This document shows positions 30,743 to 54,716 of a stretch of DNA of 64,000 bases, piece by piece; the stretch's first letter is position 1, and every line of letters starts with the position of its first letter. This stretch comes from Patescibacteria group bacterium (GTDB lineage Bacteria > Patescibacteriota > Patescibacteriia > Magasanikbacterales > GWA2-37-8): positions 686,594 to 750,593 of the forward strand of contig JBAZNA010000001.1 of assembly GCA_041649475.1 (NCBI GenBank). The letters run 5' to 3'. A program made the position numbers and the translations under genes. The notes under the pieces were generated by a model. It ran no database searches, was not told the DNA's origin, and was given only the letters and a program-made list of their open reading frames with translations.

Positions 30743-31051
30743 ATGACCAAAAACGGCACCGCAAACGGCGTGATCACGTTCGGCCAGTTGCAGGCGAAGT
30801 TCATGGAGGTCTTTCCGTCATACCTCAAGGGCCTGGAGGAATACCCCGCGGAGCTCCGCCATAGAATCGCCAAGCTCTGGCTGGACATAGAGGAGATGGC
30901 GTACGAGCGGCTGCGGCACTTTTCCGACGCCTTTCAGCTCCAGGACGTGGAGGTGCCGGTGGGCGTGACGGGTCGCTTCTGCGAGGAGATGGAACAGCTC
31001 CAGCAGGAGTTGAAGTCGGCTCACGACCGGCAGCACGGCGGGCACATCTAG
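30743..31051 (+). CDS. Hypothetical protein (102 aa) in GC-rich cassette
   Basis: GC-rich ORF with a consensus promoter and strong RBS, followed by a bidirectional terminator. No domain recognised. Confidence 0.5.
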   Translation: MTKNGTANGVITFGQLQAKFMEVFPSYLKGLEEYPAELRHRIAKLWLDIEEMAYERLRHFSDAFQLQDVEVPVGVTGRFCEEMEQLQQELKSAHDRQHGGHI

Positions 31052-31134: not shown

Positions 31135-31286
31135 AAAAATTATTTTTAGTCACCCTGCGGGAGGGAAAGACCGGCTCCTTTGGTAAAGACGGTCCGCCTG
31201 AGGCAGAAAAGGAGCGAGGTCTGTTCCACAAGGGCAAGATATATATACTGTATAAGTATGAGTTAAACCTGTCAAGAGGGCATTGA

Positions 31287-31358
31287 GCCGATGGTGGGGA
31301 TCAAACCCACGACCTATCGCTTACGAAGCGATTGCTCTATCAACTGAGCTACATCGGC
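31287..31358 (-). tRNA. tRNA-Thr (anticodon CGU), CCA not encoded
   Basis: Acceptor GCCGATG/CATCGGC, D-arm GCTC-AGTTGATA-GAGC, anticodon stem ATCGC/GCGAT with loop UUCGUAA, T-arm GTGGG-TTTGATC-CCCAC. Confidence 0.85.
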
Positions 31359-35576: not shown

Positions 35577-36218
35577 TTATATCAAAGATCCGCCATCTTT
35601 TCCACCAACTTTTTCCAACTGAATTCTGGTCAATTCCAATACCGCCGCCAAATCTTCGGCTGATAAATTAGGAATTAATTTTATAAAATTTTCATAAACC
35701 GCCCTGGTGCTGGCCAGATGGCGATTTTGCCGGTATTTTTCATCCGCTTGGACGATTATATTATGAACTTTCTGCGGATCGCGCACGGCGCTCACATCCA
35801 AAACAAAATGCTCGCTGTTTGTCTGGATTATTATATTTCCATAACCGAACACATTGGCAAACACGCCTTTTTTCCTGATGGAAATATCTTTTATGTCCGT
35901 ATAACTGACCGAAGTGACCACTTCATCAAACAACGAAGATCTTTGCACGTCAACAATGCGTTCGCTGGTGATAATAAAAATATTGACGTGATTGTAAAAC
36001 CAGACGCGGAAGATTATAAACAACCCGGCTAACATACCAAGGGCAAAAATCACATCACCCCACCAACTGAAAGACAGCAGTTTAAACATGAAAAACGAAT
36101 CGGCAAATAAGATTGTCAGACCGACTGAATATTTCCAAAAATAAGTCAGGGCGTATCTTTCCACCACCGAGAGAATTTGCTCGTTTTCGCGAAGATGAAT
36201 TTTTTTTGCTATTGACAT
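35577..36218 (-). CDS. Membrane protein with bacterial PH (bPH_2) domain
   Basis: 2 TM then ITSERIVDVQRSSLFDEVVTSVSYTDIKDISIRKKGVF (YdbS/YdbT-like). Confidence 0.45.
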   Translation of the reverse strand: MSIAKKIHLRENEQILSVVERYALTYFWKYSVGLTILFADSFFMFKLLSFSWWGDVIFALGMLAGLFIIFRVWFYNHVNIFIITSERIVDVQRSSLFDEVVTSVSYTDIKDISIRKKGVFANVFGYGNIIIQTNSEHFVLDVSAVRDPQKVHNIIVQADEKYRQNRHLASTRAVYENFIKLIPNLSAEDLAAVLELTRIQLEKVGGKDGGSLI

Positions 36219-37495
36219 AAAATTTCTTTGGCGACTTGGCGGTCATCCCAGGGGATTTTTTTGCCATTGGCCACGACAATGCACGGTTCAGTGCCCTTGG
36301 CCGTGATGGCAATTATATCCCCGGCTTTGGCCATTGTTATGGCTTTCTCTATCGCCCGGCGCCGGTCAACTTCTATGAATAAATTTTCATTGTTTGTTTT
36401 ATTTGCATGCCGCGCGCCAACTGCCAGCATCTCGGCAATTTGATTTGGGTCTTCATCAAAACAATTTACGTCGGTAATAATTACCACATCACAAAGCCGG
36501 CCGGCAATCTCGCCCATTTTTTCACGCTTGCTTTTATCGCGGCCGCCACCGTCAGAACCGACCAAACCGATTAATTTGCCTGTCGGACCGAGCATTTTGC
36601 GCAAATTTGTAAATAATTCCGTTAAACTTAACGGCTCGTGCGCGTAATCAACAATCACCTTAAAATCCTGCCCCGGATTGACCACTTCCATCCGGCCTTC
36701 AATCAATTTAACATTTTTCAAGCCGCTATCGATTTTTTCTTCAGGAATATTTTGCGATTTGGCCACGGCAATGGCGGCCAGGGCATTATAGACATTAAAA
36801 TCCCCTAAAATATTTATATGATAATTATGATTATTTACTGAAAATTCTGATCCGGTTTCTGTGGAAGCCAAAATCTTACCGGTAATATTTTTTAAATTCG
36901 GTTTTGTGTTTTTTATTCCAAAGCCGAATTTTTCATCAGCCGAAAATTGTAAATAATAATCGCTGTGCTGGTCGTCAATATTTACCACAGCCACCTTTGG
37001 CACTTTTTTGTTATCAAAAACCTTTTTGGCCTGTTTCATCAGTTGCGCAAAAATAATGCCCTTGTCGCGTTTTAAATTTTCAAATCCGCCATGCGCCTCC
37101 ACGTGTTCCGGCGCCAAATTGGTAAACACCACCACGTCATAATTCAAACCGTAATGGCGATACTGCAAAATTCCCTGCGAAGATGTCTCCACCACCACAT
37201 ACCGGCACCCGGCTTGCACCATTTGTTTTAACATTTTTTGAATTTCCCCACGGCCGAGCATGGTCATTTTTTTATCATTGAGCCAGCGCTTTTCGCCAAT
37301 TTGAAATTCAACCGTGCTTAGCATCCCCACCTTTTGCCCGCCGGCTTCCAAAACCGAAGAAATCAATCTGCAGGTGGTTGATTTGCCTTTAGTGCCGGTG
37401 ACTCCGACCACGATTAATTTTCGGGAAGGCCGGCCATACCACCAATAGGCCAAGAGGGCCAGTTTAAAATGAAAAAGTTTTTTCAGTAATCCCAT
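36209..37495 (-). CDS. Mur ligase family protein (MurE-like, lacking long N-terminal domain)
   Basis: P-loop GVTGTKGKSTT, motif VVFTNLAPEHVEAHGGFENL, C-terminal Mur ligase domain. Confidence 0.6.
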   Translation of the reverse strand: MGLLKKLFHFKLALLAYWWYGRPSRKLIVVGVTGTKGKSTTCRLISSVLEAGGQKVGMLSTVEFQIGEKRWLNDKKMTMLGRGEIQKMLKQMVQAGCRYVVVETSSQGILQYRHYGLNYDVVVFTNLAPEHVEAHGGFENLKRDKGIIFAQLMKQAKKVFDNKKVPKVAVVNIDDQHSDYYLQFSADEKFGFGIKNTKPNLKNITGKILASTETGSEFSVNNHNYHINILGDFNVYNALAAIAVAKSQNIPEEKIDSGLKNVKLIEGRMEVVNPGQDFKVIVDYAHEPLSLTELFTNLRKMLGPTGKLIGLVGSDGGGRDKSKREKMGEIAGRLCDVVIITDVNCFDEDPNQIAEMLAVGARHANKTNNENLFIEVDRRRAIEKAITMAKAGDIIAITAKGTEPCIVVANGKKIPWDDRQVAKEILCQ

Positions 37496-37509: not shown

Positions 37510-38088
37510 CTATAACTTTTTTAAACTGACTTCATAAACAACCTGCTCCAGTTTATTTAACGCCTGCTTGGCCTGATCAAATTTTTGGCGGTTATAACCG
37601 GTCAAATCCATATCAACCAGCTCGCCGATAATTTCTTCAGCCACAGCATAACATTTTTTTACTTCATCAAATTTTCTGGCAGTGGCCGATTTGATGGCAT
37701 ACCGCAAAAGTTCGCCCGGCACATCGCATAAACCGCCGATAAAAGTGTCGCAATCAATTTCCAAATTTTTTATTTTCCCCAGGGTCTTGCCGGCCAAAAA
37801 TTGTTCAAACAGCGAGGCCTCGGTGTATTCTTCCAAAGCCGCGCGGTATGAACCCTCGTCAAAAAGATCTTCATCTTCTTTATATTTTTTATTTAACTCA
37901 AGCAAAATCTGACCGGCAGAAGCCAAGACCTCGGCTCCGTCTTTATCATCGCGCTGAAAGGCAAAAATCGCTTTTTTAGACAGGTGCTGGGCGTCTCCGG
38001 CGGCCTTAATAACCTCACGTCTTTTTTGCGCATAACTTAACAAATCCTGGCGTATCTCGTTTAGATATTTTTTATCCAACATACACAA
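37510..38088 (-). CDS. Hypothetical helical protein (192 aa)
   Basis: No confidently recognised domain; possibly translin/DUF47-like helical bundle. Confidence 0.3.
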   Translation of the reverse strand: MCMLDKKYLNEIRQDLLSYAQKRREVIKAAGDAQHLSKKAIFAFQRDDKDGAEVLASAGQILLELNKKYKEDEDLFDEGSYRAALEEYTEASLFEQFLAGKTLGKIKNLEIDCDTFIGGLCDVPGELLRYAIKSATARKFDEVKKCYAVAEEIIGELVDMDLTGYNRQKFDQAKQALNKLEQVVYEVSLKKL

Positions 38089-38168
38089 AAATTAAAGATT
38101 TCCCCAAGGGGGTCTTGATTTTTTTCTGAATTTAGTTTATCATTATTAAAGTTAAAAGTCCATAAATT

Positions 38169-38241
<73 letters not shown>

Positions 38242-38294
38242 CAAATTTAAAATCGCCGCGGAAGCGGTGGTTTTTTATTTTATCAATCTGGGTA

Positions 38295-38323
38295 TTGACC
38301 GCTTACTTACCTTATACTAAAAT
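38295..38323 (+). promoter_or_regulatory. Sigma-70-like promoter TTGACC-17-TAAAAT
   Basis: Near-consensus hexamers with 17-nt spacing, immediately upstream of a GC-rich non-coding stretch. Confidence 0.5.
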
Positions 38324-38325
38324 CA

Positions 38326-38600
38326 AATCAGACCGCGAAAGGGAACTGCAGGTGAAACAAACCAGCAACCTGTAGACCCGCACTTTCTCCCCAGAGAAAG
38401 GTTTAGCGGCCTCGTAGCGCAACACGGATGCGGCCTTGGGAACGACCGATAACGAGTTTAAACCTCGTCGGTCAGAAGAACGAGATCGTCCGCCGCAGCC
38501 CAAAAGAAGACGGATGAGCCAAGGAGGAGGAATGCGCCCAAGGCCCGAGCAACACAGCATGCAGGTGCTGGTAACTGCATGCTTCTTTTAATTCTTGTTT
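38326..38600 (+). ncRNA. Candidate ~270-nt GC-rich non-coding transcript (promoter-to-terminator unit), identity unknown
   Basis: Bounded by the promoter at 38295-38323 and the hairpin gcatgcag...ctgcatgc followed by a T-rich run at 38557-38600. No plus-strand ORF above ~26 aa. GC-rich and purine-rich. It does not match the tmRNA, RNase P or SRP features I can recall. Confidence 0.25.
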
Positions 38601-38672
38601 TTTTCCATCGCCTGTGTTACCTTGTCTGTAAGCTTGGTAATCAACTTGCCAAAAACGAAAGGGGGTATCAAA

Positions 38673-39248
38673 ATGCCACGTGCCATCATCAGTGTGTACG
38701 ACAAGACCCGGCTCCTGGCCTTCGTACAGGGTCTCACCAGTCTCAACTGGGAGATCATCTCCACCGGCGGCACCGCCAAGCATCTGCGGGAAGCGGGCTT
38801 CCCAATTCTGGATGTGTCGCAGGTCACCGGATTCCCGGAGTGCCTGGAGGGACGGCTCAAGACCCTGCACCCCAAGATCCTCGGCGGCATCCTGGCCAAG
38901 GGCACGCCGGAGCACAAGGCGACCCTCAAGAAGCTGGAAATCGAGATGGTGGACATGGTCGTGGTCAACCTCTACCCGTTTGAGGAGACCGTGGCCAAGC
39001 CGGACACGACCTGGGACCAGGCCATCGAGCAGATTGACATCGGCGGCCCCACCATGATCCGCGCCGCGGCCAAGAACCACAACCGCGTGACCGTGATCGT
39101 GGACCCGAACGACTACATGCTGGTGGTCAACGAGCTCGAGTTGCACGGCGAAGTCCGTCCTCATCTCCGCCAGTCCCTGGCGGCCAAGGTCTTCCGCAAG
39201 ACCGCGGAGTACGACAAGGCCATCGCGGACTACTTCAACAGGTCCTGA
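38673..39248 (+). CDS. PurH N-terminal domain only: IMP cyclohydrolase (MGS-like) domain protein, GC-rich, possibly a truncated purH
   Basis: MPRAIISVYDKTRLLAFVQGL...STGGTAKHLREAGFPILDVSQVTGFPECLEGRLKTLHPKILGGIL...VVVNLYPF matches the PurH IMPCH domain. It ends where the AICAR transformylase domain would begin. GC is far above the flanks. RBS AAAGGGGG upstream. Confidence 0.7.
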   Translation: MPRAIISVYDKTRLLAFVQGLTSLNWEIISTGGTAKHLREAGFPILDVSQVTGFPECLEGRLKTLHPKILGGILAKGTPEHKATLKKLEIEMVDMVVVNLYPFEETVAKPDTTWDQAIEQIDIGGPTMIRAAAKNHNRVTVIVDPNDYMLVVNELELHGEVRPHLRQSLAAKVFRKTAEYDKAIADYFNRS

Positions 39249-39349
39249 CAGACCCCAGCTGATCCGTTCTTTCCACTTGAGGAGACAACAGCGCAGCCGA
39301 TTCCCCATCGGCTCGCCTCAATCTAATGAAAATCAAGATTTGGTTTTTA

Positions 39350-40429
39350 TCAGATTGAGCTAGCCAATTCCTCTACAATCGCAATCACCCGCTCCGGCTT
39401 GGCTGGAGGTAAAACTTCGTGCAATTTATTTCCCAAAAATTTTGCCACTTCCGGATATTCAATCAAATCTTTGACAATATGCGCCAACTTTTGGCCGCCG
39501 TCTATTTTTTCATTAAGCACCACCACCGCTTTGTTTCTGGCCAGCATATTGGCATTTACTTCCTGATGATTATTTAAAATCGGCACCAATATAGATGTTT
39601 TTGCTAATGCTGCCAATTCGGTAATGGTAGAAAATCCGGCCCGGGCCACCACCACGCTCGCAATCGCGTAAGCATACTTCATTTCCTCGGTAAAAAATTC
39701 ATAAACATGATAATTGGAAAAAATCGTAGTGGCGTTCTGTTGCGGGGTGCTCTGCCTTTCTCTGCCCACCAGATGAATAACGTGCCAATCCCTAGGCAAA
39801 AGCGGCAAAGCATCCAAAACCATTTTATTGATGGTGTTTGAGCCCGTGCCTCCACCCAGAGCAAAAATCACCGGCGCCCCGGCCGGTATGCCAAACTTGG
39901 CCCTGGCCATCGTCAAATTTGATTCGGTTAAATTCCGCACCGGATTGCCCAGCCACTCTGTTTTCATGGCATCAAAATTGGCTAAATTATCTTTCAAGGC
40001 CACGGTAATTTTTGTGGCGGATTTGGCCATCATCTTATTGGCCAAACCGATCTCAAAATCCTGCTGGTGCACCCAGGTAGGAATGCCCAAAGCCGCGGCC
40101 GCGAAGTGCAAAGGCACGCTGACAAAGCCGCCGGCTGTAATAAGTAAAGCCGGTTTTTCCTGCCACAGCAAAATCAAGGACTCCAGAAATCCCCAAAATA
40201 CTTTAAAGACGTCAATAAAATTAAAGAAAGAAAAATAACGGCGCAATTTTCCGGAAGCAATCGGCAAAAAAGGGATACCGTATTTTTCCACCAGCTTTTG
40301 TTCAATGCCGCTTTTTGTGCCGACCCAGACAAACTCCGCACTCGGGTCATGTTTTTTATAAATTTCAAAAACCGCCAGTATCGGCACTACCGGTCCCAAA
40401 GTTCCACCACCGGAAAGGATTATTTTCAT
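39350..40429 (-). CDS. murG: UDP-N-acetylglucosamine--N-acetylmuramyl-(pentapeptide) pyrophosphoryl-undecaprenol GlcNAc transferase
   Basis: N-terminal G-loop MKIILSGGGTLGPVVP and the GT28 C-terminal domain; 359 aa. Confidence 0.85.
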   Translation of the reverse strand: MKIILSGGGTLGPVVPILAVFEIYKKHDPSAEFVWVGTKSGIEQKLVEKYGIPFLPIASGKLRRYFSFFNFIDVFKVFWGFLESLILLWQEKPALLITAGGFVSVPLHFAAAALGIPTWVHQQDFEIGLANKMMAKSATKITVALKDNLANFDAMKTEWLGNPVRNLTESNLTMARAKFGIPAGAPVIFALGGGTGSNTINKMVLDALPLLPRDWHVIHLVGRERQSTPQQNATTIFSNYHVYEFFTEEMKYAYAIASVVVARAGFSTITELAALAKTSILVPILNNHQEVNANMLARNKAVVVLNEKIDGGQKLAHIVKDLIEYPEVAKFLGNKLHEVLPPAKPERVIAIVEELASSI

Positions 40430-53765: not shown

Positions 53766-54029
53766 ATGCGTATTCCTTGTCCACGACCGCCCAGGTCGAT
53801 TCAAGATGAGGTTAAGGTTCATGAAGCAATCAGGGACGCCAAGGCCAATTCCAGGCTGATCTTCGTCGTTGAAGTCAATCCGAAAACGCACGAAGTGTCG
53901 GCTAACGCGTACTGGCCGGCTGCCCTGCCCGGATGGGAAAAGGAATATTCCCTTCTCGGGGAGCTCAAGAAGATGGCCGTTTCGGTCTGGCGCAAGGTCA
54001 GCAGGAAGCAAAACAATGCGCAAGCATAG
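53766..54029 (+). CDS. Hypothetical protein (87 aa) in GC-rich cassette
   Basis: Strong RBS GGAAGGAGG 8 nt upstream of the ATG, directly abutting the tRNA-Pro 3' end. GC-rich; no domain recognised. Confidence 0.4.
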   Translation: MRIPCPRPPRSIQDEVKVHEAIRDAKANSRLIFVVEVNPKTHEVSANAYWPAALPGWEKEYSLLGELKKMAVSVWRKVSRKQNNAQA

Positions 54030-54116: not shown

Positions 54117-54716
54117 TTACTTCTTCGTGGGCTTCTGGCCCACACGCATGTCCTTCACATCCGCCTCCACTCCGACCTCCAGGGTATTCGGCTTGACCGA
54201 GAAGATCTCCTCCTGTTTGATCTTCACCCCAGGCACAGTGACGGCGACAGCCGGTTCTTCCAGCATCGCCTCCTTGTTTGGGTCTTCAACGATTCTGACA
54301 AAGCGCTTGAGGCCCATCTTCTTGAGCGCCTTGATCACCGCCTTCTTGTCGCGCAGGTGCACCGAAGGCGGATTGAGACGCCATCCGAAACTGCCGGTTG
54401 GCACCTGGATGGTCTTGGTCTTGCCGCCCTCGGTCAGCGTCTCGCGGTTCGCGTCGGCGAAGATGAAGAGACCCCGTACCAGGCCGGCAATGGTCCGGTT
54501 GTGAGACGAGGCGAAGGCCATCGCCTTCTTCTGCAAGACCGCTACCCCGTCATTTAAGACATTCTCGATCGAGTTGATCTCCCTCTGCTCCGCGGCGATG
54601 CGAGTCAGTATGTTAGCCGCCTCAACCAGGTTTTCCGGAATATATACTTCATAGTCCGGCTTAGCAGGCATCTTCACCTGATGAGGTGCTTTATCCACGA
54701 TCTTTTTCTTGGCCAT
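54117..54716 (-). CDS. gam: Phage Mu Gam-like host-nuclease inhibitor / DNA-end binding protein
   Basis: ETLTEGGKTKTIQVPTGSFGWRLNPPSVHLRDKKAVIKALKKMGLKRFVRIVEDPNKEAMLEEP aligns closely, by memory, with Mu Gam (DELTNGGKVKTANLVTGDVSWRVRPPSVSIRG...LGLQRFIRTKQEINKEAILLEP). GC-rich; RBS GGAGGG. Confidence 0.7.
   Translation of the reverse strand: MAKKKIVDKAPHQVKMPAKPDYEVYIPENLVEAANILTRIAAEQREINSIENVLNDGVAVLQKKAMAFASSHNRTIAGLVRGLFIFADANRETLTEGGKTKTIQVPTGSFGWRLNPPSVHLRDKKAVIKALKKMGLKRFVRIVEDPNKEAMLEEPAVAVTVPGVKIKQEEIFSVKPNTLEVGVEADVKDMRVGQKPTKK

Follow-up and report, generated by a model that had tools for sequence, protein, structure and literature searches.

A stand-alone IMP cyclohydrolase gene behind an orphan structured RNA in the tRNA-Lys/murG spacer of a Patescibacteria genome

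Patescibacteria, also named candidate phyla radiation (CPR), have no purine synthesis of their own and depend on other cells, which raises the question how their nucleotide supply is secured and regulated. In a stretch of 64,000 nucleotides from a very small Patescibacteria group bacterium of groundwater type (assembly GCA_041649475.1, contig JBAZNA010000001.1, positions 686,594 to 750,593), here called the window, a gene for a stand-alone inosine monophosphate (IMP) cyclohydrolase, purJ, the final enzyme of purine synthesis, is found behind a GC-rich non-coding region of 261 nt. What does such a gene encode at this place, and is it controlled by the RNA in front of it? Promoter, structured non-coding stretch, terminator and gene follow one another between tRNA-Lys and murG (Table 1). 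This order had been proposed in a first-pass annotation of the window; all parts were located and their arrangement is established. The cassette is a lineage-specific insert in the variable tRNA-Lys/murG spacer of a Magasanikbacteria-type (CPR) genome. As a tentative reading, to which we give a probability of roughly 0.35, the RNA and purJ form a single transcription unit with a terminator-containing leader.

The purJ gene and its product

In the purJ product the MGS domain of Pfam was detected with an E-value of 4.6e-23, together with positions 1-58 only of the family AICARFT_IMPCHas. The protein has 191 aa and its gene ends with the stop codon 39246-48; the MGS-like domain is present and the aminoimidazole carboxamide ribonucleotide formyltransferase (AICARFT) domain is absent. 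The product could be aligned over its full length with residues 7-195 of human ATIC (1p4r_A). The IMP cyclohydrolase motifs GRlKTLHP, NLYPF, IDIGGP and RAAAKN are kept in this alignment. Equivalents of the catalytic residues K66, Y104, D125 and K137 of human ATIC are present; at the position of S12 there is a Y, which P0005 has as well. A further full-length match was obtained with phrog_30501 (E-value 5e-55), and homologues were found in thousands, many of them with 190-202 aa. In domain content (MGS-like fold and start of AICARFT_IMPCHas), in length (about 190-200 aa) and in the catalytic Lys, Tyr, Asp and Lys, the product corresponds to PurJ/PurH2. Judged by its sequence, it is apparently a competent IMP cyclohydrolase, converting formamidoimidazole carboxamide ribonucleotide (FAICAR) to IMP.

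Stand-alone IMP cyclohydrolases were described as purJ (PMC6486802) and as PurH2 (PMC6797443); the partner making FAICAR is purV or purP (PMC6486802). The enzyme also occurs in cyanophages (PurH2 of P-SSM2 and P-SSM7). The earlier description of the gene as an isolated or truncated PurH domain had to be given up, as it belongs to this known family, with many homologues of 190-200 aa. A truncated bifunctional purH was also considered and rejected. Extension of the tblastn alignment beyond the stop codon gave weak alignment drift; the gene is not a truncated purH, because the similarity to full-length PurH fades past this codon. No AICARFT-like sequence was detected by tblastn within the 64-kb window. 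A viral scan with the purJ protein gave no match, and in a metagenome scan with the same protein only ordinary purH with at most 58% identity was detected.

The purJ genes of free-living bacteria are located in pur operons beside purM, purD and purE and match their genome in GC content, whereas purJ of the window stands alone between tRNA-Lys and murG. The clade to which it belongs is confined to CPR-like contigs, unlike PurJ/PurH2 of free-living bacteria. A lone, apparently active IMP cyclohydrolase would point to the salvage of a late purine intermediate.

Structure of the RNA region and search for relatives

The near-consensus promoter noticed previously behind the tRNA-Lys terminator was recovered with 10 of 12 matching positions and a 17-nt spacer. 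It begins about 15 nt past this terminator, and its surroundings are AT-rich and host-like. In several relatives a promoter is found at an equal distance behind the tRNA terminator; thus, the promoter of the cassette is probably host sequence. The predicted transcription start, at about 38330, is the exact onset of the GC-rich stretch. For this stretch a length of about 270 nt had been stated; 261 nt with 55.6% GC were measured, compared with 43.1% GC for the window of this low-GC genome. The hairpin with T-rich run reported at its end was confirmed with a 9-bp stem, a 10-nt loop and -14 kcal/mol. The U-run UCUUUUAAUUCUUGUUUUUUU follows directly and reaches to about 38603, so that a GC-rich hairpin with an immediate U-run, the form of an intrinsic terminator, is present. 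The terminator scan missed this hairpin, because its loops were limited to 3-8 nt.

The region 38330-38590 folds as a whole at z = -2.3 to -2.9 relative to shuffled sequences. Three parts are predicted: a three-way junction of 83 nt, a domain closed by a 9-bp helix, and the terminator hairpin. In the first, P1 (38333-36/38406-09) encloses a P2 hairpin with a 14-nt loop and a P3 hairpin CUUUCUC/GAGAAAG; the second, central domain includes a hairpin at 38444-38473.

The first-pass annotation had stated that no open reading frame (ORF) above about 26 aa exists in this region. The gist of this statement, lack of coding signal, was maintained, but the count was not, as an ATG ORF of 29 aa (38428-38517) and a TTG ORF of 51 aa (38436-38591) exist on the plus strand. 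A plus-strand ORF with coding signal, which would have spoken against a non-coding RNA, was looked for and none was found: the GC content by codon position is 0.59/0.57/0.51 on this strand, without periodicity. For an ORF of 82 aa on the minus strand 0.52/0.54/0.55 was calculated, compared with 0.60/0.38/0.89 in purJ. A protein-coding remnant was rejected as well, since the six frames are stop-ridden or of low complexity and codon periodicity is absent. An antisense ORF of 278 aa (38472-39308, minus strand) spans all of purJ and extends 200 nt into the RNA region; it is regarded as a by-product and not as a gene, because its GC content at first codon positions (0.77) mirrors that of purJ at third codon positions (GC3, 0.89).

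Relatives of the RNA were searched with cmscan against all 4227 families of Rfam 15, with permissive filters and E<=10, using 38320-38680 (361 nt) and 37900-39600 (1.7 kb). As had been proposed as a check, known families were covered, but no relevant match was detected for riboswitches, T-box, 6S, signal recognition particle RNA, RNase P, transfer-messenger RNA, ribozymes or small RNAs. The sole match in the 361-nt span was antisense, to a mammalian long non-coding RNA model (13.7 bits, E 6.5). With the whole window at gathering threshold tRNAs alone were found.

Control of purJ by a known purine-related riboswitch, above all ZTP (pfl), or by a T-box is thereby hardly credible. ZTP riboswitches are known upstream of purH, and the position of the RNA with its terminator in front of a gene of late purine synthesis is leader-like in the same way. 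However, the idea of a ZTP element, raised in the first-pass annotation, was not borne out, as no match to pfl (RF01750), or to purine, phosphoribosyl pyrophosphate, T-box or other models, was obtained in either span. The pfl model is marked by a P1/P2 pseudoknot domain and a 3' sub-domain CCGCCUGGGC; the RNA of the window, with no match to it, has about three times the length of the ZTP aptamer, a predicted three-way junction and a closed domain of 114 nt. A ZTP element was not seen at the free-living purJ loci either. For a T-box, the terminator loop GGUGCUGGUAAC is faintly similar to the T-box core and AAAGGGAA (38338-45) could pair with the anticodon arm of tRNA-Lys, but such short complementarities are at chance level, with 13 pairs of this kind in 1.5 kb.

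Search by nhmmer in 164 loci (1.3 Mb) returned the query itself only. A single-sequence covariance model of the 5' domain, applied to 0.88 Mb, detected the query and one spurious match (L013, 20.9 bits), which lies antisense inside an ORF of 308 aa and has many non-canonical pairs. No homologue was found in DNA records of phages and plasmids or at the syntenic site of 73 Magasanikbacteria relatives, and no repeat of the RNA within the window. An exact 22-mer of the RNA is absent from metagenome contigs; 17-mer matches in viral contigs are located in coding regions and were discarded as chance. The nearest relatives of the genome, with translin 85-89% identical, are present in Logan assemblies only, and the contig examined ends inside tRNA-Lys. 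P0002 was dismissed as a close relative, its high score being an assembly duplication. The RNA is an orphan and member of no described family. As it is represented by a single sequence only, it cannot be called a new class.

Table 1 Features of the cassette and its neighbourhood (window positions) and of related loci (positions in the respective locus)
Feature	Position	Strand	Remarks
Mur ligase gene	36209-37495	-	Upstream neighbour
Translin-family gene	37510-38088	-	Between Mur ligase gene and tRNA-Lys
tRNA-Lys(UUU)	38169-38242	+	ARAGORN; Rfam tRNA 65.7 bits; left anchor of the variable spacer
tRNA-Lys intrinsic terminator	38249-38280	+	Terminator scan; 11-bp stem and T-run
Sigma-70-type promoter TTGACC-17-TAAAAT	38295-38323 (TTGACC 38295-38300; TAAAAT 38318-38323)	+	10/12 consensus positions
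Orphan structured non-coding RNA/candidate leader	38330-38590	+	261 nt, 55.6% GC
Predicted 5' three-way-junction domain	38330-38412	+	Minimum free energy (MFE) -28.9 kcal/mol, z = -3.81, 0/150 shuffles as stable
Predicted central domain closed by 9-bp helix GGCCUUGGG/CCCAAGGCC (38432-40/38537-45)	38432-38545	+	MFE and centroid structures; z = -2.1
Shine-Dalgarno site AAGGAGG	38521-38527	+	Read from sequence; 4 nt ahead of the ATG of the upstream ORF
Upstream ORF, 19 codons (MRPRPEQHSMQVLVTACFF)	38532-38591	+	ATG 38532, TAA 38589-91
Terminator hairpin AGCAUGCAG, 10-nt loop, CUGCAUGCU	38556-38583	+	-14 kcal/mol, z = -2.65
AT-rich spacer, 81 nt, with purJ ribosome-binding site GGGGG (38661-65)	38592-38672	+	Spacer fold z = +0.34
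purJ/PurH2, stand-alone IMP cyclohydrolase	38673-39248	+	191 aa, GC 62%, GC3 0.89; Pfam, PDB alignment, PHROG, homologues
3' tail of insert, GC-rich, small hairpin GCCGAU-UCCCC-AUCGGC (39296-39312)	39249-39316	+	Sequence reading
AT-rich 20-nt inverted repeat, bidirectional terminator common to cassette and convergent murG	39317-39359		Repeat search
murG	39350-40429	-	Pfam; convergent with cassette
GC-rich post-tRNA-Lys element of relatives	L004, L007, L011, L028, L045, L046 (5221-5429), L049, L054, L055, L057, L058 (5611-5806)	- (of locus)	
CPR-like purJ genes	L001 6001-6633; L002 2160-2744; L003 415-993; L176 866-1504; L177 5001-5576; window 38673-39248		

A candidate leader and its competing explanations

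If RNA and gene form one unit, transcription would start at the host-type promoter at about 38330, and the first approximately 260 nt would be a structured leader closing in the intrinsic terminator. In the spacer between the terminator and purJ no usable promoter was detected by the promoter scan; the sole match, TTGCCA-17-CAAAAT, has a -10 box overlapping the ATG. Lacking a usable promoter, purJ, about 80 nt past the terminator, would be expressed upon read-through only.

The most likely switch would be translation of the upstream ORF (uORF), which is preceded by a Shine-Dalgarno (SD) site and lies inside the central domain of the predicted fold. Among 5000 dinucleotide shuffles, 0.28% contain AAGGAGG-N3-9-ATG; for GGAGG..ATG followed by at least 15 codons the share is 1.2%. 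The uORF spans the entire terminator hairpin, with its stop codon within the U-run, so that a ribosome is placed where it is able to affect the terminator, as in leader-peptide attenuation; translation of the uORF is predicted only. A ribosome over the hairpin would block termination. The 3' strand of the 9-bp closing helix overlays codons 2-5 of the uORF, and this helix would mask its first codons, thus opposing initiation and favouring termination. Co-transcription, conditional read-through and any role of the uORF are inferred from this arrangement.

The layout resembles most closely, by analogy, the attenuators of pyrBI type with a leader ORF running through the terminator. The pyrBI leader of E. 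coli is a ribosome-mediated attenuator of this design. A promoter, an SD-led leader ORF, an intrinsic terminator within it and a gene of nucleotide metabolism are common to both. In contrast to pyrBI, the leader ORF of the window comes only after about 200 nt of structured RNA, pause sites or regulatory codons could not be named, and the organism's own genes are mostly without SD.

Several observations support a leader. The parts show a fitting order and spacing, and purJ is promoterless, unlike purJ of the loci L001, L003 and L176. The region folds at z = -2.3 to -3.8 without coding periodicity, and the uORF signal is rare in shuffled sequences. Furthermore, purJ and other GC3-rich genes are SD-led and most host genes are not. 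Hence, the SD site in the leader is a signal of foreign-gene type, which connects the leader with purJ and not with the host. A possible antiterminator was modelled at P2: the best partner for the 5' arm of the terminator is the P2 segment (loop and 3' strand, 38360-38378, -21.4 kcal/mol), and UGCUGGU of the terminator loop (38566-72) is complementary to ACCAGCA of the P2 loop (38361-67).

Other results weigh against a leader. The pairing energy of the terminator 5' arm is matched by 8.6% of shuffled upstream sequences and is not significant. Such a leader accompanies no other purJ gene: the RNA was detected neither upstream of the closest CPR purJ genes (L001-L003, L176-L178) nor upstream of free-living ones (L078-L084). 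The first-pass annotation had named absence of conservation in any related sequence as an argument against its proposal, and this absence was observed in every collection searched. The claim of a functional RNA family is therefore lowered, although a lineage-specific element remains compatible. As no homologue of the leader was found, neither covariation nor selection speaks for it, which is the main weakness of the functional claim. As the host seems to make little use of SD sites, the uORF may be translated inefficiently. Finally, the spacer is AT-rich and in other CPR loci only the ORF is GC-rich; a separate origin of RNA and gene is therefore conceivable.

Separate origins are assumed when the 261-nt RNA is regarded as an independent small RNA gene, downstream of which purJ landed and is expressed by incidental read-through. 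We consider this explanation possible, if somewhat unlikely. The unit is complete from promoter to terminator, it is divided from purJ by the AT-rich spacer, and a structured RNA with 55% GC is not unusual where the genome has 43% GC. An analogous arrangement of promoter, structured RNA of 95 nt and terminator is found after tRNA-Thr of the window, 95% conserved in a relative with 83-85% identity; having its own promoter and terminator and not being a leader, it fits an independent RNA and also counts against a leader. At the corresponding position behind tRNA-Lys, relatives have another structured RNA, for which 18 covarying pairs were counted. In contrast, the RNA itself was found neither at this locus in the 73 relatives nor elsewhere in the 1.4 Mb of loci searched, the strong SD site and uORF inside it are typical of foreign-type and not of host genes, and purJ would have no alternative promoter.

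Alternatively, the region may be inert, i.e. non-coding DNA, for example a former intergenic region, that was transferred together with purJ out of a GC-rich donor using SD sites and came to lie behind a host promoter by chance. This was judged to be unlikely. The failure of every search would be explained, as would the GC content, which is raised as in the adjacent purJ and rises exactly at the predicted transcription start. The window contains further GC3-rich genes with SD, two of them directly 3' of tRNA-Thr and tRNA-Pro, and the overall fold reaches a z of only about -2.3. However, the 5' domain alone has z = -3.8, terminator and SD-led uORF are in exact register, and, as other CPR purJ loci are GC-rich in the ORF only, co-transfer of 340 nt of upstream DNA would be exceptional. 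With an inert RNA, the locus would be no more than a small horizontal insertion of the ordinary kind. If the RNA gates purJ, it would be among very few regulatory RNAs proposed for the huge uncultured CPR radiation.

The insertion site itself was examined in relatives. The host type, Magasanikbacteria, is indicated by 73 loci with relatives of the translin-family protein, almost all from metagenome-assembled genomes of Magasanikbacteria or other Patescibacteria. The order translin, tRNA-Lys, spacer and murG is kept in many of them, and the spacer varies from 29 nt to 4.5 kb with differing contents. The 73 Magasanikbacteria loci are without the cassette and contain a MiaB-like gene, small ORFs or tRNA-like elements instead. 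Like tRNA-adjacent genomic islets, the cassette lies directly 3' of a tRNA in a spacer variable among relatives and has an atypical composition; unlike these, it comprises about 1 kb and has no integrase and no att repeat.

An origin as the remains of an element that an integrase had inserted at the tRNA-Lys 3' end would agree with this position, shared with two other GC3-rich islets of the window, and with the variable spacer. In relatives, the elements at this site terminate with 14-20 nt that copy the 3' end of tRNA-Lys exactly. Nevertheless, no such copy was detected within 3 kb of the cassette (best local alignment score 19, shuffle mean 17.9), no integrase gene is among the ORFs of 38245-39350, and the repeat search gave no significant flanking repeats. 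This origin is rather improbable.

Composition of CPR purJ genes and minor elements

With purJ of the window a known family gains a further member; more unusual is the anomaly in GC3 and SD that the gene shares with its whole CPR clade. Foreign DNA had been suggested for the cassette, and the composition of the gene agrees with this (GC3 0.89 vs 0.28-0.62 for host genes in the window). The three best database matches of purJ are 60-65% identical and further members 56-59%; all are located in low-GC CPR-like contigs. The CPR-like purJ genes are mutually 52-65% identical and constitute one clade in a neighbour-joining tree of 88 sequences, a tree without support values. Their ORFs have 57-66% GC and a GC3 of 0.66-0.93, with flanks of 34-47% GC. 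The ORFs are 13-27 GC points above the flanks, with a GC step at the ORF ends. All of them are SD-led.

In L001 and L176 the order rpmI, rplT, purJ and tRNA-Asp is conserved. Between these two contigs, L20 is 67%, L35 75% and purJ 65% identical, and purJ has a GC3 of 0.91 and 0.83, respectively. The genes for ribosomal proteins, IF3 and SmpB in these contigs show zero SD, purJ an SD of 4-9 nt. For pairs of CPR purJ genes, identical codons at conserved residues are modestly above expectation (e.g. 0.73 observed vs 0.57 expected). Since the syntenic pair is long diverged and both genes are GC3-rich, a simple recent transfer from a GC-rich donor is insufficient as explanation. The anomaly is old or constantly renewed: the gene was either kept GC-rich and SD-led or repeatedly replaced from an unsampled pool.

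In CPR-like contigs purJ is found again and again, and its coding and translation signals differ from those of the host genome in every case. The persistence of this anomaly offers a test case for sequence evolution, relevant to amelioration, biased gene conversion and SD-independent translation. If purJ is in fact kept in a foreign dialect, this would imply selection specific to the gene, acting on its codons, its mRNA or its mode of initiation, or else a hidden pool of GC-rich genes from which purJ is continually replaced. Very doubtful is the combined proposal that the RNA is the first of a new class of cis-acting sensors, metabolite- or translation-coupled, which gates purine salvage (FAICAR/IMP supply) in an ultra-small symbiont, and that CPR kept purJ for a long time in a foreign dialect (GC3 up to 0.93 and a canonical SD), amid host genes with neither.

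Of 30 window genes checked for SD sites, 23 were without, the great majority of them host genes. Genes without SD include those for ribosomal proteins, IF3, SmpB, RpoD, valyl-tRNA synthetase and MurG (window, L001, L002, L176 and L177), and in the other CPR-like contigs (L001, L002, L176 and L177) the SD run was 0 in nearly all genes. As host genes are essentially without SD, the organism probably initiates translation without SD pairing.

Upstream of purJ in L001 (5890-6000), L003 (300-414) and L176 (760-865) a common AT-rich promoter CTTGATATTTT...TAAATT was found. The 5' untranslated regions of the same three genes contain a hairpin CCGG-caaag-CCGG before a GGAG ribosome-binding site. Both this promoter and the CCGG hairpin are missing in front of purJ of the window. 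Between rplT and purJ of L001 (5590-5690) and L176 (about 640-740) a conserved hairpin with T-run, GGGCUCCGAAAGUGUUUGGUGUAUUGCGGAAUCGCCCCCUCCUUCGAUUCCG...CCGGGGCC, was observed. It is shared by two distant Patescibacteria and could serve as the terminator of rplT or as an attenuator RNA.

Foreign-looking genes comparable to purJ occur elsewhere in the window. An ORFan next to tRNA-Thr (30743-31051, plus strand) has a GC3 of 0.87 and is SD-led; its sole homologue, 77% identical, is located at the same site in a relative and has a GC3 of 0.86. A Mu Gam-like gene next to tRNA-Pro (54117-54716, minus strand) has a GC3 of 0.76 and is SD-led, as is a small ORF directly after tRNA-Pro (53766-54029, plus strand). 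For the gene 10770-11171 (minus strand) a GC3 of 0.69 was calculated.

The second small RNA candidate of the window (31140-31262, minus strand) is located directly 3' of tRNA-Thr (31285-31358, minus strand). It consists of a promoter TTGACA-17-TACAGT, a GC-rich hairpin RNA of about 95 nt (z = -3.84, 0/200 shuffles as stable) and a bidirectional terminator common to the convergent ORFan. It is about 95% identical in L179 and L180, where the surrounding DNA is 83-85% identical, and absent from all other loci.

After tRNA-Lys and its terminator, about ten Magasanikbacteria relatives carry a GC-rich element of 150-200 nt (Table 1). Most of these elements end in a 14-20-nt copy of their own tRNA-Lys 3' end, exact where checked, followed by a second terminator. 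They gave no Rfam match at E<=5 and were not called by ARAGORN. Copies of type A are also present elsewhere in the same loci, some in stretches with other tRNA genes (L040, L052, L060). In type B the ends pair as an acceptor-like stem of 7 bp beside a T-stem-like helix, which gives a tRNA-like minihelix enclosing a domain of about 110 nt. For five sequences, RNAalifold predicted 55 pairs, 18 of them with compensatory changes.

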